IMG/VR virus record: IMGVR_UViG_3300035208_002115
Length of the DNA: 64,000 bases
Source: a virus
Taxonomy: Duplodnaviria; Caudoviricetes
Reading direction: 5' to 3' (one strand)
How positions within the stretch are numbered: position 1 is the first letter of the stretch; every line of letters begins with the position of its first letter. This document shows positions 5,771 through 62,047 of the stretch, piece by piece. The position numbers and the translations under genes are program-made. The notes below the pieces were generated by a model. It was not told the origin of the DNA, ran no database searches, and worked only from the letters and a program-made list of their open reading frames with translations.

Positions 5771-7927
5771 GTGATGATTGAGTTTAACAAACTAATTCAA
5801 GCCCAATTCAACAAGATGTGTGAAACGGGTAAGTTATTTCGTAGTTCGTTGACTGGTCAAGAAGTGTGGGATTTGTATATTAAAAGTTTTCCAAAAGAAC
5901 ACAATCCCATATTCAGAAGTCCAGACAGTTCTTCTCATAACTGTAATCACTGTAATAACTTTATTCGTAGATATGGTAATATCGTTACCATTGATGAAAA
6001 TCTCAATGTTGTTACGATGTTTGATGTTGATGCAGATGAAGAATACAGTGCAGTAGCTAAAGTGGTAGATTCTAAACTAAAATCGGCTACGGTTTCGGGT
6101 GTTTTCTTTGAAACTTTCAGCGAGCTAAATTCTTTACCTTATGAGAAATGTTCTAAAACAAATGAAATTTTCAGATTGGGTATTGACAAAAACGTAAAGC
6201 AATACACAAAAGAGGAAGCTGAATTGTATAAAAATTCAGATAATTCTTTCATAGTTAAACCTGAAGAAATTAGAACATTTAATCATTTACATCTTAATCT
6301 ACCAAGGGTATTTGTAGATATGGGTGATGATTCAGTTGAAAAAATAATGGCTAATTATCGAGATGCCAAAAATGTTTTTCAAAAGGCTATGCAAGTGATA
6401 CCGCTTGATACACTCAATCTGGTGAAAGACCTTATTAACCAAGGTTCACTGCTGGATGGACAAACTCATTTGTATAAATTACACCAAATCATACCATTAA
6501 AAGAACAATATGATAAATTATCCGATGATAAAAAGGATAATTGGTGTTGGATTAACAGTTATAAACTTCCATTTGCTAAGTTCAAAAATGAATTAATTGG
6601 TACTTTATGCACCGAGTTGGCAGAGGGGGAAGAATTAAACAAAGCATGTCAGTCTTGGAATAAAAGAGTTGACCCAGTTAATTATATGAAAACTGTTGCT
6701 CCGATTACCAAGAAACAAATTGAAGAAGCTAAAAAATTCGTTGAAGAAAATGGTTATGAAGAATCTTTTAATAGAAGATTTGCCACAATTGATGATATTA
6801 AAGCTTCGGAAATTAAACACATCAATGTTGGAGACGGTAAATTAAAAACAGTTTCTATATTCGATAATGTTAAATCGACTTCTACTCGTCACAAAAGAAG
6901 TGAATTTGATAATGTGGAAGAAGTAACTATTGAAAAGTTTATGTCGGAGGTTCTTCCTTCGTGTACTTCAGTTGAAGCGTATTTGTCTAACAAATATGAA
7001 GGTAATCTTGTTTCTTTAACAACAGCTAACAATAAAGAAAGCAAACCTATATTCAAATGGAATAACAATTACAGTTGGACATTCAATGGTAACTTGGCTG
7101 GTAAATCGATGATTAAAGATGCTGTTGAAGCTAAAGGTGGTAAGGTTGATGGTGTATTGCGTTTCTCTATTATGTGGGCAGAAAATGACCCAACAGATAA
7201 TTCCGATTTAGATGCTCATGCACAAGAACCAAATGGTACTCATATTTATTATTCGTCTGATTACAGAAAAGACAGAGGAAATCATAGAACTTCTATGTCT
7301 GGACAGTTGGATATTGATATAACTCAACCTAATAATTTTAGTAATAAAAATATTGTTGAGAATATCGCTTGGACTGATATCAAAAGAATGAAAGATGGTG
7401 TTTACAAATTGTGGATTAACCAATATGCCAGTAGGGGTTCTAAAGGATTCAAAGCTGAAATTGAATTCGGGGGCGAAATTTATTCTTATGAATATAATAA
7501 ACCCGTATCAGGCAATGTACAAGTAGCTGAAGTTACTTTTAATAATGGGGAATTTACCATTAAGCATTTACTACCTGAAATTGCATCATCTAAAGAACTT
7601 TATGGTTTACAAACAAATGAATTTCATAAAGTGAATTTAGTGTGTCTAAGTCCTAATCATTGGGGAGATAATAATGTAGGAAATAAACATTATTTATTCA
7701 TGCTTGATGATTGTAAATGTCCAGTAAATATTCGTAGTTTTCATAATGAAAACTTGATACCAGAATTAGCACAACATCGCAAAGTTCTCGAAGTACTGGG
7801 TAACACTACTATGATTGAACCTGCTAATAAACAATTATCTGGTTTTGGGTTCAATGCTACTGTTCGAGATGAACTTATTGTTAAATTACAAGGGTCATTC
7901 AAACGAGTAATTAAAATAAAATTTTAA
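5771..7927 (+). CDS. Large hypothetical protein with CxxC and a YfaP/DUF2135-like segment
   Basis: 718 aa; HNCNHC; DLDAHAQEPNGTHIYY...GQLDID; TACATTTG upstream. Confidence 0.6.
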   Translation: MMIEFNKLIQAQFNKMCETGKLFRSSLTGQEVWDLYIKSFPKEHNPIFRSPDSSSHNCNHCNNFIRRYGNIVTIDENLNVVTMFDVDADEEYSAVAKVVDSKLKSATVSGVFFETFSELNSLPYEKCSKTNEIFRLGIDKNVKQYTKEEAELYKNSDNSFIVKPEEIRTFNHLHLNLPRVFVDMGDDSVEKIMANYRDAKNVFQKAMQVIPLDTLNLVKDLINQGSLLDGQTHLYKLHQIIPLKEQYDKLSDDKKDNWCWINSYKLPFAKFKNELIGTLCTELAEGEELNKACQSWNKRVDPVNYMKTVAPITKKQIEEAKKFVEENGYEESFNRRFATIDDIKASEIKHINVGDGKLKTVSIFDNVKSTSTRHKRSEFDNVEEVTIEKFMSEVLPSCTSVEAYLSNKYEGNLVSLTTANNKESKPIFKWNNNYSWTFNGNLAGKSMIKDAVEAKGGKVDGVLRFSIMWAENDPTDNSDLDAHAQEPNGTHIYYSSDYRKDRGNHRTSMSGQLDIDITQPNNFSNKNIVENIAWTDIKRMKDGVYKLWINQYASRGSKGFKAEIEFGGEIYSYEYNKPVSGNVQVAEVTFNNGEFTIKHLLPEIASSKELYGLQTNEFHKVNLVCLSPNHWGDNNVGNKHYLFMLDDCKCPVNIRSFHNENLIPELAQHRKVLEVLGNTTMIEPANKQLSGFGFNATVRDELIVKLQGSFKRVIKIKF

Positions 7928-9332: not shown

Positions 9333-9374
9333 TTTTTTAGATGTTTTTAATCTACAATAATCCTCATTTTTATA

Positions 9375-9648
9375 TGTTCACTCACCTAAGACTGTCAACG
9401 GCAGCATGAATATTCGATATGCCTACCTTCAATTTAGCGTGTTCACTCACCCTTTGCTATCAAAATGCAATGTATACCCATGATGTGTCTACCTTCAATT
9501 TAGCGTGTTCACTCACCAGTCTAAAGTTTTATACGAATAAAGGTCTCGATGTGTCTACCTTCAATTTAGCGTGTTCACTCACCAAAAGGATAAGTCGATC
9601 AGCATCCCTACCGATGTGTCTACCTTCAATTTAGCGTGTTCACTCACC
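9375..9648 (-). CRISPR. CRISPR-like array 1: four full 36-bp repeats, one degenerate terminal remnant and four spacers; leader end lies inside ORF 9579-9914
   Basis: + strand repeat GATGTGTCTACCTTCAATTTAGCGTGTTCACTCACC at 9482, 9548 and 9613 (exact) and 9416 (2 mismatches); remnant TGTTCACTCACC ends at 9386; unique spacers of 29, 30, 30 and 29 bp; degeneration toward the left implies minus-strand orientation. Confidence 0.85.
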
Positions 9649-9914
9649 ATACTACTAACTAATTTATTAATATTCAAATCATTAAGATGATATTTTTCTT
9701 CTAAAATTTGATGTATTTTAGAGAAAGAATAATATAAAATGTATTTTTTTAAATCATAATTAAAATAAACAATATTATTTTTCTTACCAATTAAATAATC
9801 AGAATCATTTTCAGAAACATACCATTCTGTATCCTTAATGATATTCCAAAGGAAGTATTTTGGACTTCTGGCTTCCTGAATCTTTTGTATTATATCTAAA
9901 GTATCTTCTTCCAT
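9579..9914 (-). CDS. Small protein whose C-terminus is encoded by repeat 1 and spacer 1 of array 1; paralog of 34398-34808
   Basis: Starts 3 nt after the DnaJ-domain gene; LDIIQKIQEARSPKYFLWNIIK matches LELAQKIIESRSPKYFVYNIIK. Confidence 0.75.
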   Translation of the reverse strand: MEEDTLDIIQKIQEARSPKYFLWNIIKDTEWYVSENDSDYLIGKKNNIVYFNYDLKKYILYYSFSKIHQILEEKYHLNDLNINKLVSSMVSEHAKLKVDTSVGMLIDLSFW

Positions 9915-29924: not shown

Positions 29925-32333
29925 ATGAATAAAGCTGTTTTGGGCATTGGGTATGGGGATGAAGGTAAGGGTATAACAACCGATTACCTCTGTCCCCTTT
30001 CTTTTAATCCAATGGTAGTGAGATTTTCAGGTGGTCAGCAAGCTGGTCATTGTCAAGTAGGTGATACACTTATTACCACAATTAATGGTTTATTTTATAT
30101 TAAAGATTTAGTAGGTGAAAAAACAAATGTTAATTCGTCTTTTGATGTCATTAATATGAATTTAGAATCTGAAAAAACATCCTTATTGTATAAAGAAAAA
30201 AATAAAAAGGTTAATAAAATACTTCTTTCCAATGGTGTCGAATTTGGGTGTACTTCTTCACATAAATATTTCGTATGGAATTCTATTAATATGTCATGTG
30301 AGTGGGTTGAAAGTGTGTATTTGAATAAAAATATACATCAATTTATTTTCCCAAAAAAATATGATAATTATATAGGTAATGATTTATTTGATTTATCTAA
30401 TATTGATAATACAACAGATTTTATTCATAATAAAGTTAAAATTAACATTAAAAAAATAGATATATATGATATATCGGAGTTAATGGGTCTTGTTAATGGT
30501 GATGGTATGTTTACTAAAAAGGGTTTACAAATTATTTTTAATAAAAAACAAAAAGATGTATTAGAAACAGTTGTTAATTCCTTAAAAAACATGGGGATAA
30601 ATTATACAATTAAACCACATAAATGCAAATCTTGTTTAATATTATATATATGGTCTACTGATTTTTTGAATATTCTTTTAAAATTGGGTTGCTTTTTTAA
30701 AAAAGGTGTAGAAAAAAGAACACCCACTTTTGTGTTAAATGGTACAAAAAAAATAATTAAATCATATTTAAGAGGTCTTTTTGATACCGATGGGTGTGTT
30801 AGTTTTCACAAAAAAAAACAAAATATATATGGAAGAATAAAATTTAGTAACACATCTGAAATTTTAATTCGAGAAATGCAACAAATGTTATATTTAATTG
30901 GAATACATTCCCATGTATCAATATATAAAAATAAAAAAAAGAAACGATTAACTGTATTTAATATAGAAATATCTTCTATTGAAGATATTATAAAATTTTC
31001 AGAAAGAATAGGATTTATTTCTAAATATAATAATAATAAATTAGATAAATTAATAGAATTAAAACAAAATAAAAACCCAAACCTTAATGGTGTTGTATTA
31101 AAAGTAAATTCAAATTTCAAAAAAAACTTCCTTAAAATATTAAATAAAAAGGGAAGAAATAATAACAATATTAGAACAAATTTCATTCTAAATAATAAAT
31201 CAAAAATACAAGAAGAATATAATTATCTGATAGAACTTTTAGAAACATATAATTTAATAAATATTAAAGAAATAGTATTAAATGACAGAATTGAAAATGT
31301 CTACGATATAACAATGCCAAACACACATAGTTATATTTCAAATGGTACTATATCCCACAACACCGTTATTTTAAATGATATCAGACACGTATTTTCAAAT
31401 TTTGGTTCTGGTACATTACGTGAAATCCCAAGTTATTGGGCGAAATACTGCACCGTTGACCCAGTTGGTCTAATAAATGAATTAGATATTTTAATTGAAA
31501 AAGGTGTTCAGCCTTTATTATACATTGATGAAAGGTGTCCTATAACAACACCATTTGATATATTTTATAATCATGAATCCGAAAAAACCAATAATCATGG
31601 TAGCGTTGGGGTTGGTGTTGGTGCTACAATAAATAGAGAAGAAAAATTTTATTCTTTACAATTTGGTGATTTATTTTATGAACCAGTGATGAGAATAAAA
31701 TTAAATGAAATAAAAAAATTCTATAATTTAAATTTTGAAATTAATTTAGATAGATTTTTTCAAAGTATAGAAAGAATCATATCTTCTAAAAATATAAAAC
31801 CTGTGTATGATTTTCCATTTAGTGAAAATTATATTTTTGAAGGTTCTCAGGGATTATTATTAGACCCAAATATTGGGTTTTTCCCTCATGTCACAAGAAG
31901 TTATGTTAGTACTAAAAATATAATAGATGCTGGATTTAAACCTGAATTATATTTAGTTACAAGAGCTTATCAAACCAGACATGGTAATGGGGCTATGATT
32001 GGTGAAAACATTCCACATAATATTTTAGTGAACCCAAATGAAACTAATGTGATGCACCCACACCAAGGTGAATTTAGACGGGCATTACTTAATTTAGATT
32101 TATTAACATATAGTGTTAATAAAGACCCGTATATTCGTTTTTGTTTGAACAAAACTCTTGTAATAACATGTCTTGACCATATTGTAAATGATTATAGATT
32201 TACTTATAAGAATGAAATAATAACATCCTCAAATGAAAATAGTTTCATTCAAAAAGTAAGCAAAATATTAGATATAAAGAATGTTTTAATTAGTAAATCA
32301 GATGAATCGAAAAATATAATAAAATGGAACTAA
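29925..32333 (+). CDS. purA: Adenylosuccinate synthetase-like protein containing an intein
   Basis: GDEGKG, RFSGGQQAGH|TV, FGSG, HGSVGVG, FEGSQG.LLD, FPHVTRS, TRHGNG. Confidence 0.85.
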   Translation: MNKAVLGIGYGDEGKGITTDYLCPLSFNPMVVRFSGGQQAGHCQVGDTLITTINGLFYIKDLVGEKTNVNSSFDVINMNLESEKTSLLYKEKNKKVNKILLSNGVEFGCTSSHKYFVWNSINMSCEWVESVYLNKNIHQFIFPKKYDNYIGNDLFDLSNIDNTTDFIHNKVKINIKKIDIYDISELMGLVNGDGMFTKKGLQIIFNKKQKDVLETVVNSLKNMGINYTIKPHKCKSCLILYIWSTDFLNILLKLGCFFKKGVEKRTPTFVLNGTKKIIKSYLRGLFDTDGCVSFHKKKQNIYGRIKFSNTSEILIREMQQMLYLIGIHSHVSIYKNKKKKRLTVFNIEISSIEDIIKFSERIGFISKYNNNKLDKLIELKQNKNPNLNGVVLKVNSNFKKNFLKILNKKGRNNNNIRTNFILNNKSKIQEEYNYLIELLETYNLINIKEIVLNDRIENVYDITMPNTHSYISNGTISHNTVILNDIRHVFSNFGSGTLREIPSYWAKYCTVDPVGLINELDILIEKGVQPLLYIDERCPITTPFDIFYNHESEKTNNHGSVGVGVGATINREEKFYSLQFGDLFYEPVMRIKLNEIKKFYNLNFEINLDRFFQSIERIISSKNIKPVYDFPFSENYIFEGSQGLLLDPNIGFFPHVTRSYVSTKNIIDAGFKPELYLVTRAYQTRHGNGAMIGENIPHNILVNPNETNVMHPHQGEFRRALLNLDLLTYSVNKDPYIRFCLNKTLVITCLDHIVNDYRFTYKNEIITSSNENSFIQKVSKILDIKNVLISKSDESKNIIKWN
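30051..31361 (+). mobile_element. Intein with LAGLIDADG homing endonuclease (437 aa)
   Basis: Starts CQVGDTLI, block B TSSH, LMGLVNGDG and YLRGLFDTDG, block F VYDITM, ends ISHN followed by Thr; removal restores QAGH-TV. Confidence 0.93.
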
Positions 32334-34397: not shown

Positions 34398-34808
34398 ATG
34401 GATAATTTAGAACTTGCACAAAAAATAATTGAGAGTAGAAGTCCTAAGTATTTCGTTTACAATATTATAAAAAAGTCTGATGTTATACCGTCTCCCAGAA
34501 GTAAGAGTAAGTTTAATTATTATATCTTTGATGATGAAATCATGCTTAAAATGGGACGGTTAAAAGATGAACATAACCCAGAATTATTTTGGGTTGAAAT
34601 TCAAAAAACATTATTTATTGATTTAGAGGTTAAATTTAAATTAACTATTGAACAAAGTAAAGATATAATACGTACTGTTGTTAGTGATTATTTTAATATA
34701 ACAAGGGATGAGATTCAATTTTCAGAACATACATTTATTGATAATATCTCGACAACATTAATGAAAAAATATGTCGCTGAAAAATATAAATCGATGAAAA
34801 ATGGCTAA
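34398..34808 (+). CDS. Paralog of the array-1-fused protein, without its own array
   Basis: QKIIESRSPKYFVYNIIK and LEVKFKL...IIRTVVSDYFNI align with ORF 9579-9914. Confidence 0.65.
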   Translation: MDNLELAQKIIESRSPKYFVYNIIKKSDVIPSPRSKSKFNYYIFDDEIMLKMGRLKDEHNPELFWVEIQKTLFIDLEVKFKLTIEQSKDIIRTVVSDYFNITRDEIQFSEHTFIDNISTTLMKKYVAEKYKSMKNG

Positions 34809-35799
34809 AGTTTTTATAATTGGAAATAGCACATTTGGGTATAAAGAATTGTTCGACTTAAATAAATCATTAGACGAATCGGGTAAATATTATTTTGATT
34901 ATCTCATACCATTTATAAAAAAATATAAAAAAGAAAATGATTGCCTGATTCATCTTGGTAATGTGTTCAATAGAAATGAAAATATTAATGTAAAAACTAT
35001 TAATCAGGCCGTTTCAGTATTCGAGAGATTATCAGAATTATTACCAGTTTTCATATTACTATCTAAACATGATACATATGGCACATTAAATGTCCTCACT
35101 GTACTTAAAAATATAAAGAATGTTTATATCGTAGACAAATCAGCTACTTTATATGATAATAAAATACAATTATATGGTTATCATAAAGATATAATTGAAG
35201 AAATTAAAAATAAAAATATTTTTTTAAATCATTTTAATAAGATTTTAGAGCCTGTTGAGAACCTTGAACATTATTCTGAAAGTGAATTTTTATTTGTAAA
35301 TAATGAAATATATGGCCTTAATTTAAATATAGACTTTAAAATAATTTATTCTGGCGTTAAAGATGAAACTAAAGGCAATAATAAATGTATCGAATCCCCA
35401 TACCCATTAAATTTTAATTCCAAAAATAATGGTATTTGGGTGTTAGATGTGGAGTCTGGACAAGAAAAATTCATTCCAAATGGAATTAATTCTAAATTTG
35501 AGATAAAAAATATCACTTCTATTGGTGATTTGAAAATACTAACCGAAGAATATCTTAATAATAATTTTGTAGATTTAAATATAAATTTCGAACTTTCGGA
35601 AAATTTAGAATTTCAAATGAAATTATCACAGTTGAACGTGAAGTCGATTCATTATACTAAACAAGACATCATTGAAGAACAATTTGAAGAAGAAAAAACT
35701 TACGATATATTTGATTTAGATGCTATTATAACTGATAATATTAATTCAGACACAGTGAAAAATGAATTTGATAATGTCAAACGCATTTATAGTAAATAA
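34801..35799 (+). CDS. SbcD/Mre11 (T4 gp47)-like metallophosphoesterase with degenerate metal ligands
   Basis: IIGNSTFG in place of DxH, HLGNVFNR in place of GDxFD, LSKHD in place of GNHD; IESPY, IPN..SKF. Confidence 0.65.
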   Translation: MAKVFIIGNSTFGYKELFDLNKSLDESGKYYFDYLIPFIKKYKKENDCLIHLGNVFNRNENINVKTINQAVSVFERLSELLPVFILLSKHDTYGTLNVLTVLKNIKNVYIVDKSATLYDNKIQLYGYHKDIIEEIKNKNIFLNHFNKILEPVENLEHYSESEFLFVNNEIYGLNLNIDFKIIYSGVKDETKGNNKCIESPYPLNFNSKNNGIWVLDVESGQEKFIPNGINSKFEIKNITSIGDLKILTEEYLNNNFVDLNINFELSENLEFQMKLSQLNVKSIHYTKQDIIEEQFEEEKTYDIFDLDAIITDNINSDTVKNEFDNVKRIYSK

Positions 35800-35810
35800 T
35801 GGACGGAATT

Positions 35811-36109
35811 GTTGGGTATATCTTTCAAATTGTGACTTGGTACACTGAGAAGATAGTTGAGAAGCTTGATTATTCCGTTGGGTATACCTTTCAAATTATG
35901 ACTTGGTACACTATTTATTCGCACTTGAATTATCCTGAGTTAGTTGGGTATACCTTTCAAATTATGACTTGGTACACTAAACCAACTCTTTGGCTTTTGG
36001 TCTTTCCTGTTGGGTATACCTTTCAAATTATGACTTGGTACACTAAATCTGGATTCGTTGTTTTTGTTTACCTGTTGGGTATACCTTTCAAATTATGACT
36101 TGGTACACT
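35811..36109 (-). CRISPR. CRISPR array 2: five 36-bp repeats and four spacers (30, 30, 30, 29 bp)
   Basis: + strand repeat GTTGGGTATACCTTTCAAATTATGACTTGGTACACT at 35877, 35943, 36009 and 36074; copy at 35811 has 2 mismatches (trailer); adjacent to a Cas12f-like gene. Confidence 0.95.
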
Positions 36110-36119
36110 ATACCATAAT

Positions 36120-36315
36120 TTAAATCACTCAATTTAAGGTATTTAGTGAGTGTATTAGTGGAAAAAAAGTATGTAATTTTTAAAATTTTACTTTCAAAAA
36201 TCCAATTTTTGCTTTCCTGACCTCACTATCTGGTTTTAATCCCTGCGCTCACCATACATTTTAGTGAGTGTATATAGCAGTTCATTTACTGGACTTACGT
36301 CCAACCCAATAAACC
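36120..36315 (-). ncRNA. Candidate tracrRNA / leader region
   Basis: Minus-strand UGGAC-GUAA-GUCCA GNRA hairpin (36290-36303), CUCACUA/UGGUGAG hairpin, UUGGGU complementary to the repeat 3' ACCCAA, and AUACCUUAAAUU complementary to repeat AAUUUGAAAGGUAU with a 2-nt bulge; boundaries approximate. Confidence 0.55.
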
Positions 36316-36326
36316 TCAATATTATT

Positions 36327-37589
36327 TCAAAGAACTTCTTCTAAAACCTTTTCGGTTTTATTTAAGTAATATTTTCCTTTGCTTGCATCATCTAAATAAT
36401 CAACAGATGTAGCTATATTCATTGCAGCATTATAATCGCTATCAATTACTTTATTAAAATCATCACATTTCGAACTTAAACACTTAAATTCAGCACCATT
36501 TCTTTCACCAATAGAACCACAACAAGAGCATATCTGACTTGTATGATAAGGGTCAATATATTTGATAATAATACCACGTTTAATTGCTTTCTGTTCGATT
36601 AAATTCATCAAAGTCATAACACCCCAATATCTTCCAAGATAAGAATTTTGTTCTTTCATAGAATTCTTATCAAGACGTTCCATGTTTATCTGTTGAACTT
36701 TTAATTTTGCAGCAGATTCAATTACTTCTTTTGATAATTTATCCAGTACATTATCAGTAAATGATGTTTCAGAATCTTTTACTTTATTATAAACCTGCAT
36801 TTTTCTTGTTCTACCATGACCTGATTTAGCTAATACAGAAGATTCCTGTACCCTTTTATTTTTCATAGCAATACCATACTTCTGTTGAACTAATTTCTCA
36901 CTATGAATAGACTTCTGATAACTTGGTATGTCATTTATTCTTAAAGAAATAAATCTTCTCACACCCATATCAATACCCATCACTCTATTATCTATGCCAA
37001 CATAACCTTGGATGTCTTGTTCATAGGATAGAATTAACATCAGTTCTTTTCTATTGGTATATTTAATAAGAAAAGTTGAGTTAAGATTGTATTTTTTATT
37101 TTCTAAATCCAAAAATCTATTTAACATAGTTTTAAGATGTCCTGTTTTTTTGTCGAATATTATTTTAAATTTGATATTTGTTCTACTGTTAATAAGAATA
37201 AAAAAATCACCATTTTCTTTTATTAATTTTGGATTAGAATTTTTCAAAAATTGAAAACGTGTAGCACCATATTTCTTATACAGTCTTGGACTTCTTTTAC
37301 CTGATAATAAACCAGCTTTAACATCACTTTTATAATTGTTTTCTGCTTGATATACCCAATCTCTCAGATAAGTAGTAATAACTTTAGGAAATTCCTGAGT
37401 AGTTAAATTATATACTTGTGATTTGGGTGGTGTAACAGGTGACATTATTACTGGATATTGATGTAACATCCGTGATATATCATAAGCCCGATTCAGAATC
37501 TTATAAGATACATTAAAAATATCAAATATCCAGTTCTTGGATATTACATCCACTGGTATTATTTTTATTTTCATTGATGATGTTACCAT
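36327..37589 (-). CDS. cas12f: Cas12f (type V-F, Cas14/TnpB-derived) RNA-guided nuclease, about 420 aa
   Basis: RuvC-I VMGIDMG, GHGRTRK, RuvC-II INMERL, DPYHTSQICSCCG...FKC...C zinc finger, RuvC-III DSDYNAAMNIA; likely start MVTSS at 37589; next to array 2. Confidence 0.85.
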   Translation of the reverse strand: MVTSSMKIKIIPVDVISKNWIFDIFNVSYKILNRAYDISRMLHQYPVIMSPVTPPKSQVYNLTTQEFPKVITTYLRDWVYQAENNYKSDVKAGLLSGKRSPRLYKKYGATRFQFLKNSNPKLIKENGDFFILINSRTNIKFKIIFDKKTGHLKTMLNRFLDLENKKYNLNSTFLIKYTNRKELMLILSYEQDIQGYVGIDNRVMGIDMGVRRFISLRINDIPSYQKSIHSEKLVQQKYGIAMKNKRVQESSVLAKSGHGRTRKMQVYNKVKDSETSFTDNVLDKLSKEVIESAAKLKVQQINMERLDKNSMKEQNSYLGRYWGVMTLMNLIEQKAIKRGIIIKYIDPYHTSQICSCCGSIGERNGAEFKCLSSKCDDFNKVIDSDYNAAMNIATSVDYLDDASKGKYYLNKTEKVLEEVL

Positions 37590-37862
37590 AATTAATTTTT
37601 TGTAAAGTAAAACATATTTTCTGAATAAAAAAATATTATTATAAAAAATACTAAGATTTAATAACAATATCCGTATACAATGTCTATATCGGAATAGAAG
37701 GAAATACCCCCTTTATAACATTAGTCACCTCATCAAAGAATTTATTATTTTAAAGATGTGTAATATTAGATAATTATGTATATTTTTGCAAATGATGAAA
37801 ATGACAGAAGTGTTTTACGAAAAAACTGAGACAAACTAAAATAAAAACCTTTTTGGAAAATA

Positions 37863-46010: not shown

Positions 46011-48491
46011 ATGTCTAAACTTGACGAAAAGTATATATTAAATTTACAAAATTTGAGTGATGCCTTAGAATCTTTAGTAGATATACTAAAAGAACAACAT
46101 AAAGCAGGTGGTCAAGCTGGTGGTACAGACACGGTTAATACTATGTTGGGTAATATGGACACTGAAAAGTTTAATAAAATAGTTGATGATTTAAACGATG
46201 TAAAGGCGACAAGCATTCGAATTGAAAATAATACTGATAAAATATTAAAAGAAGTAAAAGATGCCAGAAGTGCTAAAGAATCTGGTATGTTTGGTGAAAT
46301 AGAAGACCCAAAGAACAAATCTAAAATCGTTGATGGTATAAAAGTGGTTGCATTAATAGCTGGTGGTGTGTTGGCTATTGGTTTAGCATTTAAAATAATA
46401 GGTAATGTAGATTTTCTTTCTGTTATAGGTTTAAGTGTTGCAATGTTAATAATGGCTAAAACATATTCAGAAATGTCTAATATGAAAGGTATGAATTGGA
46501 AGAATGTTTTGATTATAAATCTAATGTTGGTTACTATGTCGATAGCCTTGTTAGCATCCAGTGTAATACTTAACCAAATGCCAGATTTATCACCCAAGCA
46601 ATTAATAACAGCTATTGCATTAGGAATAACTATGGGTATTGTGTCATGGGGGTTATTAAAAGGAATCGGTTCATTTGACCCTAAAAATATGTGGATGATT
46701 GCAATAATACCAGTATTAATACCAGCCGTTGCAGGTGGTATATTACTTGCTGCATTAATCTTTACTAAGTTACCTGCATTAAGTTTTAGCCAACTTCTTA
46801 CTGCTATTTTTGTTGGTGTTGCATTAATACCAATTTCATTTGCATTCTCACTGATGGCTAAAGGATTAAAAGGTGCTGATTGGAAATCGGTATTATTTAC
46901 ATCATTAGCAGTACCTGTAATGGCTTCTACAATAGTTGGTGCAAGTTATTTATTTCAAAAAATGCAAGATGTAACATTTAATCAAATGCTTTCTGGTGTA
47001 TTTGTTGGAATTGCTTTAATACCAATCGCATTTGCATTCGCACTTGTGGCTAAAGGATTAAAAGGTGCTGATTGGAAAACTATGTTATTTACATCACTGG
47101 CTATACCAGTGATAGCTGGGGCTTTAGTAGCAGCAAGTGTAATACTTCAAGGTTTACAACCCGTTGAAGACCCAGTGGGTATGATATTAACAAGTATAGC
47201 AATTGGTGTATCAGTACTGGCTTTAGTTCCAGCATTTTTCTTAATATCTAAAATGAAAATGGATATGAAATCCATGTTAATGGGTGCATTGACAATAATT
47301 GTTGTATCTGGTGTTATTATGATATCAAGTCAGATTTTAGCGTTAGGAAAATATGATAATTATCCTTCGGTTGATTGGGCTGCTGGTGTTGGATTGTCTA
47401 TGTTATCGTTTGTTCCAGCAGTTGTTATTCTTGGATTAATTGCAACATCGGGTGTTGGATTAGTTGCAATAGGACTTGGGTTATTATCTGTGATTGGTGT
47501 AGCTGCTGCTATGCTTGCTGTAAGTTATATTTTAGGAATGGGGAAATGGGACAACTTCCCATCGGTTGACTGGGCTAAAGGTGTTGGATTATCGATGTTA
47601 GCTTTTATAGTACCTATGATTGCGCTTGGTACGTTAATAATGGCGACATTTGGTATAGGTGGTTTATTGCTATTAGCAGGTGCTGGAGCTATAATGGGTA
47701 TTGTAAGTTTGATGGTAGATATATCAAATGTGTTCTCATCAAATTCATTTGACAGTTATCCATCAGTTGATTGGGTTAAAGGTGTGACTGGAGCATTAAA
47801 TTCGTTCGGGTCTTTTATAACTAATATGCCTGTTGGTATTTTTGATATGTTAAAAGTTTTATTGTTGGGTAGAGCTATTGTTAATATAGCAAAATTATTT
47901 AATAAAAATGCGAATTTGTTTAATGAACCAAATGTTGCTTGGGTTGATAACATTAAAAATATTTTGGATGTTTTCCAATTGTTACCAGATAAAGATAAAG
48001 CTGATGGATTAAATGCAATTACTAATAGTCTTAATAGAATGGCTATGTTAGGTGCTGCAAATATAATACCTATATTGTTATTGGCTGGGACTATAAGAAG
48101 ATTAAATAGTGCTTTAGATGAATTAAATGAAAAAAATGTTGATAAATTAACACAACTTTCAAAAGGAGTTATGATATTATCTATTATAGACGATTCCAAG
48201 TTGGCCGATGTAATCGAAACGTTAAATGATAAAAAAAGGGAACTATCTACTGTATTTGATGAAAAGGGGTCGTCTTTCATTCAAGATATATTAAATGCTA
48301 AAAATGCTGGTGTATCGACATCACCTATTGGTGGTAGTAACACTGTTAATGCTCAAAAATCCACCGAACCTGAAGAAGATAGAAGTGTTATAATACTACA
48401 AGAAATAAGTGATAAAATAGATACTCTTATAACTAAAATGGAAAAGGTAGAAAAAGCATCTAATGTTGGAACATCTTTAGGTATTGATTAA
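46011..48491 (+). CDS. Tape-measure-like protein with repeated hydrophobic helices
   Basis: 826 aa, A/G/L/I-rich repeats of about 65 aa (AKGLKGADWK twice, PSVDW three times). Confidence 0.55.
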   Translation: MSKLDEKYILNLQNLSDALESLVDILKEQHKAGGQAGGTDTVNTMLGNMDTEKFNKIVDDLNDVKATSIRIENNTDKILKEVKDARSAKESGMFGEIEDPKNKSKIVDGIKVVALIAGGVLAIGLAFKIIGNVDFLSVIGLSVAMLIMAKTYSEMSNMKGMNWKNVLIINLMLVTMSIALLASSVILNQMPDLSPKQLITAIALGITMGIVSWGLLKGIGSFDPKNMWMIAIIPVLIPAVAGGILLAALIFTKLPALSFSQLLTAIFVGVALIPISFAFSLMAKGLKGADWKSVLFTSLAVPVMASTIVGASYLFQKMQDVTFNQMLSGVFVGIALIPIAFAFALVAKGLKGADWKTMLFTSLAIPVIAGALVAASVILQGLQPVEDPVGMILTSIAIGVSVLALVPAFFLISKMKMDMKSMLMGALTIIVVSGVIMISSQILALGKYDNYPSVDWAAGVGLSMLSFVPAVVILGLIATSGVGLVAIGLGLLSVIGVAAAMLAVSYILGMGKWDNFPSVDWAKGVGLSMLAFIVPMIALGTLIMATFGIGGLLLLAGAGAIMGIVSLMVDISNVFSSNSFDSYPSVDWVKGVTGALNSFGSFITNMPVGIFDMLKVLLLGRAIVNIAKLFNKNANLFNEPNVAWVDNIKNILDVFQLLPDKDKADGLNAITNSLNRMAMLGAANIIPILLLAGTIRRLNSALDELNEKNVDKLTQLSKGVMILSIIDDSKLADVIETLNDKKRELSTVFDEKGSSFIQDILNAKNAGVSTSPIGGSNTVNAQKSTEPEEDRSVIILQEISDKIDTLITKMEKVEKASNVGTSLGID

Positions 48492-60786: not shown

Positions 60787-62047
60787 ATATATTATCTAAA
60801 CTTTTTAAAATGTTTTCATTATATTTTATCCTGATTAATTTAACATTATTATTTAAACAAAAATTATTTTTTATATTATCATGTCTTTTAATAATTTTTA
60901 AATTTTTTTCACCACCAAAGTATTCTATTGGTTTAAAGTGTTGTAAACCATCATATTCAATACACATATTATACTTTGGTAAATAAAAATCAAATCTCAA
61001 TTTATTTTCATTTTTACAATTATCGAAACAGTATTGTTGTGTGAATTTGATGTTATTTTTTTCAAGGTAAAGTCTTATTTTCTGTTCACCTTTTGATGAT
61101 TTACACGCAGGACAACCAACACCTCTAAGATGGGCGCAAGCTATTTGCTCGAAAAAACCATGTTTCGGACAAATTATTCTTATTTTTTTTCTACTATGTT
61201 CATAATTAACTAAACTGTAATCGTAAACTTTACCATGTTTATTTTCAGATATTTTAATAAATTTTTCTGTATCGTATGTTCTTAATTCGTGATAACATTT
61301 TTGACATCCCTTCCCATTAATATGTGAACCAGCATTTTGTTCGAATTCACCATGTATTGGACATATTATTTTTATTTTTTCTTTACAATTATTATATTGA
61401 GTTAATGAATAATCATATTTATTATTATGAATTTCTTTCACTTTTATAATATATTCTTCATTAGTGTAATTATATTTACCAGAACATTTTGAACAACCAA
61501 TACCAAGTAAATGAGATGTTGGTTCTTGTTCGAATTCACCATGTACAGGACATATAATAATAATTTTTTTATGTGCTGTAATATAATTAACTTTTGAATA
61601 ATCATATTTATTATTATGTATTATTTTTGCTTTCTCTATAAAATCTTTAATTGTATACAAAATATTATTTGCACATTTTGGACATCCAGTTTTATTATTT
61701 AAATGATTATCTGGTCTCGCTTCAAATTCCCCATGTTCAGGACAAATTATTTTTACTTTAGTTTTATTATTTACGTATTGAGTTAATGAATAATCATATT
61801 TATTGTTATGAACCATATTTGCTTTTGTAATAAATTCATCTTTAGTAGAATTTTTAACACCAGCACACTTTGGACACCCCTGTCCTCTTAAATGATTTGC
61901 AGGTTCTTGTTCAAATTCACCGTGTTTATCACAAATAATAACAACTTTTGTTCTGGAATTGATATAATTAATTAAAGAATAATCATACCTCATATTATGT
62001 TTACTGTTCGCCTTTTCAATAAAACGTATTTTTTTAATATCTATCAT
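60770..62047 (-). CDS. Homing-endonuclease-like protein with five Zn-ribbon repeats and a C-terminal PD-(D/E)xK (Vsr-like) nuclease
   Basis: H..KYDYS..Y...KI.IICP.HG.FEQ...H..G.GC.KC five times; FDFYLP...CIEYDGLQHF. Confidence 0.8.
   Translation of the reverse strand: MIDIKKIRFIEKANSKHNMRYDYSLINYINSRTKVVIICDKHGEFEQEPANHLRGQGCPKCAGVKNSTKDEFITKANMVHNNKYDYSLTQYVNNKTKVKIICPEHGEFEARPDNHLNNKTGCPKCANNILYTIKDFIEKAKIIHNNKYDYSKVNYITAHKKIIIICPVHGEFEQEPTSHLLGIGCSKCSGKYNYTNEEYIIKVKEIHNNKYDYSLTQYNNCKEKIKIICPIHGEFEQNAGSHINGKGCQKCYHELRTYDTEKFIKISENKHGKVYDYSLVNYEHSRKKIRIICPKHGFFEQIACAHLRGVGCPACKSSKGEQKIRLYLEKNNIKFTQQYCFDNCKNENKLRFDFYLPKYNMCIEYDGLQHFKPIEYFGGEKNLKIIKRHDNIKNNFCLNNNVKLIRIKYNENILKSLDNIFIQQS

Follow-up and report, generated by a model that had tools for sequence, protein, structure and literature searches.

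Phage genome G000 (675,678 bp) carries a small protein gene whose 3' end is formed by the first repeat and the first spacer of a CRISPR-like array, the spacer being part of the open reading frame. Gene-fused arrays of this kind are real and widespread in the protein family concerned, and the rewriting of the protein tail by newly inserted spacers is well supported. We slightly favour the reading that the end of the gene is a spacer-capture site, at which an integrase writes new tails, and that it is kept for the variation that it supplies. The analysis was centred on a window, which is the whole stretch of 64,000 nucleotides examined and corresponds to positions 477,370-541,369 of G000. Coordinates without a prefix refer to this window.

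Organization of the locus

G000 was detected in landfill and groundwater sequencing runs. It carries three arrays of the 36+30 type (repeat plus spacer), one adjacent to an IscB gene, one adjacent to a TnpB/Cas12f-like gene and one fused to the ORF at 9579-9914 on the minus strand. The features considered are as follows.

9579-9914, minus strand: gene of a 111-aa protein that belongs to a Bacteroidota-phage family; repeat 1 and spacer 1 form the 3' end of the gene
9649-9914, minus strand: gene body, codons 1-89, in the place of the array leader (from the polarity in the allele series)
9613-9648, minus strand: repeat 1, 36 nt, running from the third base of codon 89 through codons 90-100 to the second base of codon 101
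9584-9612, minus strand: spacer 1, 29 nt, the present variable tail and presumably the newest
9548-9583, minus strand: repeat 2, which gives the last codon and the TGA stop (9579-9581)
9518-9547, minus strand: spacer 2, 30 nt, presumably an earlier tail
9482-9517, minus strand: repeat 3
9452-9481, minus strand: spacer 3, 30 nt, presumably an earlier tail
9416-9451, minus strand: repeat 4, with 2 changes relative to the other three full repeats
9387-9415, minus strand: spacer 4, 29 nt, the oldest
9351-9386, minus strand: decayed terminal (fifth) repeat
7150-7180, plus strand: 31/31 match to spacer 5 of a gene-fused array of sister phage G001, within a 718-aa ORF (5771-7927)
34398-34808, plus strand: distant array-less paralogue without the conserved 3' repeat end (27-residue pairwise match; family profile)

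As described in the initial annotation, the ORF passes through repeat 1 and spacer 1 and stops in the next repeat, at a TGA in positions 3-5 of repeat 2; the stop falls there because spacer 1 is 29 nt long. The three alternative tails that had been derived from the older spacers were also correct. Repeats 1-3 are identical, while the fifth repeat matches in its first 13 nt only. When read in frame, this fifth repeat gives a worn version of the 12-residue motif followed by a stop, a pattern shared by the homologous arrays, and it is probably the original end of the gene.

A separate non-coding leader is absent, and the gene body, which is under purifying selection, stands in its place. The gene-repeat junction ends in GTAT, which is also the leader end of the TnpB array and is close to the GCTAT of the IscB array. 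The neighbouring genes encode a DnaJ-domain protein and a DUF6794 protein, and other loci of the family have different neighbours. A promoter scan gave results no better than chance, and nothing was matched in the Rfam search.

The IscB gene (NF040563, over the cut-off) is located at L010:4710-6299 and its array at L010:6400-6874, together G000 C1:128709-130873. With seven full repeats and a worn eighth in the adjacent 36+30 array, this is a CRISPR-associated IscB in a megaphage. The TnpB/Cas12f-like gene (446 aa, minus strand) and the five-repeat 36+30 array about 215 bp downstream of it are found at 35805-37667; the repeat of this array folds into a strong hairpin, and the array's leader end is similar to the junction between gene and repeat in the 111-aa protein gene. 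An ORF at 35799-36098 on the plus strand runs from the end of the upstream gene across the TnpB array in frame (99 codons), probably by chance. Elsewhere in the window, an adenylosuccinate-synthetase-like gene at 29925-32333 contains an apparent intein with a homing-endonuclease domain, as judged by eye from the translation, and imperfect repeats of about 190 nt at 61100-62020 and 46780-47606 are probably repeated protein domains.

The repeat as coding sequence

The repeat is a real coding sequence under constraint. Pooled pairwise dN/dS was 0.31 in the repeat and 0.32 in the gene body (22 close genes, with non-independent pairs), and together with the predicted fold these values bear out the earlier proposal that the repeat is genuinely coding. 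The AlphaFold2 model is an alpha/beta domain of high confidence (pLDDT 91), and the repeat-coded residues close its last helix and open its last strand. In this model, residues 100-104 form a strand that crosses from the repeat into the spacer, with the first three residues of spacer 1 lying within this last strand. The spacer residues are therefore predicted to complete the last strand of the protein. The best match in a PDB fold search had a Z of 4.3 and an rmsd of 4.4 over 71 aligned residues, and none stood out; structural matches at TM 0.70-0.75 were unnamed phage clusters. These results do not by themselves make the fold a new one.

The end of the repeat provides the first two bases of a four-fold degenerate codon, and the first spacer base is always at the wobble position, so that it never alters the twelfth residue. 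All 23 repeat variants end in C and the last five bases are near-constant, while the inner part of the repeat is highly variable across the family.

Recurrence of gene-fused arrays in the protein family

No family was found for the 111-aa protein in Pfam or NCBIfam, and the PHROG matches were marginal and single. Fragments included, the protein had 8 matches in sister phage G001 and 14 in sister phage G002. A second repeat was present behind the same codon in 24 of the 27 full-length close homologues (55-70% identity). Each of these arrays copies its own gene's version of the 12 codons, and paralogues share no spacers.

The profile search for the family returned 361 representatives. Among distant homologues, a second repeat, in frame or frame-shifted, was identified in at least 32 of 64 proteins and in at least 50 of 83, the latter set having been recruited with a query picked from array-type members. 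Where the second repeat is in frame, the C-terminal 12-residue motif returns after exactly 10 residues, even though the motif itself is very divergent, and the DNA of six loci (L061-L063 and L067-L069) verified the 36+30 units. The family is tied to Bacteroidota by members that were found within prophage-like regions of Chryseobacterium genomes. The site is held at the exact codon and frame across 20-30% identity, in lytic megaphages as well as in these prophage-like regions. Arrays thus recur at the same codon with different tails in close and distant homologues alike, and the suggestion of a one-off array that had arisen de novo inside a gene can be dropped, the layout being family-wide.

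The number of units differs between members. Many loci hold one spacer or none, others stay open as protein along the whole array, and the arrays retain old spacers, up to 9 each. Protein P0019 consists of five domains linked by eight in-frame inserts. A 760-aa protein with five family domains, encoded at L061:5001-7283, has in-frame repeat-spacer joins with no stop in any of them. At L013:2847-3850, about 900 bp with two ORFs splits a gene-fused array between a truncated and a full repeat, and the second spacer of the same array resembles part of the IscB-array repeat. In a bacterial genome, a gene at L069:1041-2324 with a hit to a Tc-toxin-type domain (PF18276) lies about 8 kb from the family gene.

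Array-less relatives also exist. The initial annotation had aligned the paralogue at 34398-34808 with the 111-aa protein from the N-terminus through the repeat-coded part. Pairwise comparison recovered just the 27 N-terminal residues (E 2e-9), and the alignment through the repeat-coded part was recovered by the family profile (positions 5-99, E 1e-7). A closer array-less paralogue, with 46% identity, is located at G000 C1:236831-237106. A search for homologues in GenBank phages found none, and neither did a search of species genomes that used a single query. The exact window repeat was absent from the viral contigs scanned, and a degenerate two-repeat pattern had no match in species genomes or viral contigs.

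Polar growth of the arrays

The direction of growth was read from allele series in distant homologues, not from the locus in the window. In the empty alleles P0217 and P0238, a single motif precedes a tail of five residues, whereas P0197 and P0185 are filled alleles, in which the motif is followed by a 30-nt insert, the motif again and a similar short tail. Overall, the tails of the empty alleles are just 2-5 residues long. P0267 and P0268 hold one spacer, and the same spacer is found in second place in P0264, P0265 and P0266, behind three different ones. P0147, P0272 and P0273 combine a near-identical core with three unrelated tails. This demonstrates that, in distant homologues, a 36-bp target is duplicated and new spacers are inserted on the gene side. 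Because new spacers are inserted next to the gene, the latest one forms the protein's tail, and the central claim of the initial annotation, that spacer acquisition would rewrite the C-terminus, is upheld by this gene-side entry. Target duplication with leader-side insertion is the known reaction of Cas1-Cas2.

At the window locus, the same spacer 1 was present in contigs of 2018 and 2022 runs, one of which may be the source sample. No alternative first spacer was seen there in two DNA runs, represented by contigs, which drop rare variants. One low-depth contig joins 9387 to 9637, with only 24 letters on one side. Traces of recombination were observed in homologous arrays as a duplicated spacer in L028 and a collapsed unit in L021.

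Length and source of the spacers

A total of 88 distinct spacers was collected, mostly of 28-32 nt with a mode of 30. Phage DNA is the source of some of them. Thirteen of the 77 close-homologue spacers match DNA of their own or a sister phage (G000 and the fetched loci) with 0-6 mismatches and peptide-level support. The search space was almost all phage DNA, and host-derived spacers lie outside its view. The four window spacers themselves had no targets in G000, the fetched loci, G001, G002 or GenBank phages, and exact scans of viral contigs with window spacers 1 and 3 were empty.

Both strands are used, as 8 of the 13 matched spacers are sense and 5 antisense; 4 keep the frame of the source gene and 4 are in other sense frames. 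The 28-32 nt lengths and the use of both strands are as expected for DNA capture by Cas1-Cas2. On the 3' side, the protospacers are weakly A-rich, with A at +4 in 10 of 13, and they showed no clear PAM. Spacer 5 of locus L022 matches its own genome perfectly about 3 kb from its own array, and these 31 bases also occur at 7150-7180 of the window. Peptide mimicry, in which the native source frame would be kept, was considered and rejected: the proportion of 4/8 at first became 4/13, and a codon model gave only a slight excess.

Selection on the reading frame of the tail

If the spacers are translated, stop codons should be rare in the frame that continues from the repeat. This frame was compared with the five other frames of the identical spacers over the first four codons, using the 77 unique close-homologue spacers, which had been located by the conserved core and not by the tails. 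Of the 77 spacers, 2 had an early stop in the read frame, compared with 16-19 in each of the five others (binomial p 1.2e-6). The repeat in front of one spacer lacks 1 nt, and the boundary of this spacer was adjusted manually, in agreement with its protospacer; the uncorrected count is 3. By group, early stops in the read frame numbered 0/30 in G001, 1/26 in G002 and 1/21 in the others.

The depletion reaches about four to six codons, in agreement with the length of the predicted strand, and is gone at codons 6-9 (16 stops against 14-18 in the other frames). The older spacers alone showed an early stop in 2 of 55 (p 0.001). Since they now lie outside the translated part, the most economical explanation is that each of them was filtered on its way through the first position. 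The frame comparison is indirect but strong evidence, drawn from the sequences, and indicates that the reading frame of the tail is under selection as protein and that translation reaches the spacer. No position-specific residue preference in the tails was significant after correction, and the tail composition is random. An excess of stops at codon 7 (11/88) was not confirmed. Selection against stops means that the tail is needed; it does not by itself make the variation useful, since completing the fold would suffice.

Comparison with known systems

Directed variation of the C-terminal region of a phage protein is known from diversity-generating retroelements (DGRs) of the Bordetella phage BPP-1 type. 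Unlike DGRs, the present loci receive whole 30-bp foreign pieces with target duplication, and they show no template repeat or adenine-specific mutation pattern. No reverse transcriptase gene was found among the called neighbours of the loci, and the variable parts are unrelated 30-mers. In shufflons and the orphan cassettes of polymorphic toxins, a constant N-terminal part is followed by alternative C-termini that are stored downstream behind a repeat. The gene-fused arrays differ from these in that the pieces are newly captured 10-codon segments and not evolved domains, the repeats are direct and no invertase is adjacent.

The loci resemble a CRISPR array in that a direct repeat of constant size alternates with unique spacers that hardly differ in length, in that growth, as seen in distant homologues, is polar and duplicates the first repeat, and in that spacers of close homologues derive from other DNA. 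A non-coding AT-rich leader is missing, and a gene under purifying selection stands in its place. No Cas13b, Cas9 or tracrRNA gene of II-C or VI-B systems lies beside the window array, and cas1 and cas2 are absent from G000, G001 and G002. As the phages do not have these genes, we infer that the inserting enzyme is quite likely a host Cas1-Cas2.

In Flavobacterium columnare, the II-C Cas1 fills VI-B arrays in trans, and the II-C and VI-B repeats share a GTTGT motif at the leader-distal end, while II-C repeats are about 11 bp longer in most Bacteroidota (PMC8092290). The gene-fused arrays share with these F. columnare arrays the 36-bp repeat, the spacers of about 30 bp, polar growth and the lack of local cas1/cas2, and their gene-distal repeat end resembles, on the other strand, the GTTGT motif (PMC8092290). 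They differ in that a protein gene takes the place of the leader, translation apparently extends over repeat 1 and the newest spacer, and the repeat varies under a constraint of coding.

Huge phages are described as carrying orphan or compact cas-less arrays with spacers that match other phages, in the accessible portions of PMC7162821 and PMC12607003, and the former includes phage arrays that use host Cas proteins. The landfill megaphage paper (PMC12607003), likewise in its accessible portion, assigns its largest phages to the Mahaphage clade and predicts Bacteroidetes as their hosts. The arrays of these portions are, like ours, short, cas-less and in genomes of Mahaphage size; they are handled there as non-coding sources of guides, with no mention of conserved-gene fusion or translated spacers. 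A literature search that covered few subscription papers found no description of translated or gene-fused CRISPR arrays, and protein variation through translated spacers is apparently undescribed.

Alternative explanations

That an ORF merely runs by chance into an ordinary orphan array has next to no probability. The pairwise paralogue alignment does stop short of the repeat, as such a chance event would have it, but the family-wide recurrence, the coding constraint, the frame-specific stop depletion and the predicted fold refute it. Cassette switching, in which stored tails would be moved by repeat-repeat recombination or written by a non-Cas enzyme, is very unlikely. Early stops are also rare in older spacers, a direct-repeat deletion would expose these spacers, and recombination does occur, as indicated by L028 and L021 and possibly by the contig that joins 9387 to 9637. 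However, passage through the first position already accounts for the state of the older spacers, the allele series gain new and unrelated 30-mers on the gene side, and neither a recombinase nor a reverse transcriptase was consistently adjacent in the loci read.

The arrays may instead mainly make guide RNAs aimed at rival phages, with a tail merely long enough to fold. The small protein would then bind or process its own repeat RNA, or the guides would be loaded onto the phage IscB or TnpB or onto host Cas9 or Cas13. We consider this improbable, though less so than the other alternatives. The matches of 13 of 77 spacers to related megaphages, the A at +4 and the retention of old spacers are in its favour, as are the IscB and TnpB/Cas12f-like genes of G000, both of which adjoin a 36+30 array whose repeat ends similarly, and the precedent of phage arrays served by host Cas proteins (PMC7162821, accessible portion). 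Yet the matches show no strand bias and no clear PAM, and the persisting perfect self-match of L022 spacer 5 is hard to square with a DNA-cutting guide. Shuffled versions of the gene-fused repeats fold just as well as the repeats themselves, whereas the TnpB-array repeat has a z of -3.6; the gene-fused repeats also change paralogue by paralogue under coding and not pairing constraint. Moreover, many loci hold one spacer or none, and some arrays, such as that of P0019, are wholly read as protein. It is more doubtful still that the arrays are a by-product or a decoy, in which the gene end mimics the host integrase target by accident or as a sink for Cas1-Cas2, with fold-sparing inserts tolerated and the peptide sequence irrelevant. 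This would explain a stop depletion confined to about four to six codons as well as the capture model does, and it would account for the random tail composition, the self-derived spacers and the up to 14 family matches per genome. On the other hand, a decoy need not be coding, and an accident that truncates about one fifth of the products should be easily lost, whereas the exact codon and frame are kept at 20-30% identity from lytic megaphages to Chryseobacterium prophage-like regions, and every spacer starts at the wobble base of a four-fold degenerate codon. The capture, guide-RNA and by-product or decoy readings are mutually compatible.

Proposed mechanism and significance

In the capture model, the last 12 codons would double as the folded end of the protein and as the 36-bp target of a CRISPR-type integrase, most likely a host type II-C-like Cas1-Cas2 acting in trans. 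In each event, the 36 bp would be duplicated and a piece of about 30 bp, taken from DNA present in the infected cell, would be set immediately behind the gene. Translation of the newest insert would give the tail and finish the last beta-strand, while older inserts would be shifted back as a record of former tails, and phages with a tail-truncating insert would be purged. The layout would be maintained for its supply of variable surface peptides of 6-10 residues, which probably serve a binding contest with host defence proteins or rival phages, the kind of partner being a guess. Counting against this model, the inner repeat varies more than a usual Cas1-Cas2 target, the II-C repeats of most Bacteroidota are longer (PMC8092290), empty alleles manage with tails of 2-5 residues and array-less paralogues exist. 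We lean somewhat towards the variation of the tail being adaptive.

CRISPR adaptation is known for nucleic-acid memory; at these loci it appears to write protein, and selection on the peptide leaves a measurable mark. If true, this is a class of directed protein variation apart from DGRs and shufflons. It would explain many orphan arrays in giant phage genomes and would show how little sequence the Bacteroidota integrase requires, which bears on how 36-bp VI-B arrays are filled where II-C repeats are longer, a question left open in PMC8092290. The Chryseobacterium homologues in cultured strains make the capture model directly testable, and the system may lend itself to in-vivo peptide libraries or to recorders with a protein readout. 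On balance, we find it slightly more plausible than otherwise that this widespread family of Bacteroidota-phage proteins uses host CRISPR integration as a protein diversifier, with tails selected for what they bind, which, if true, would be a new route to rapid protein variation in phages.
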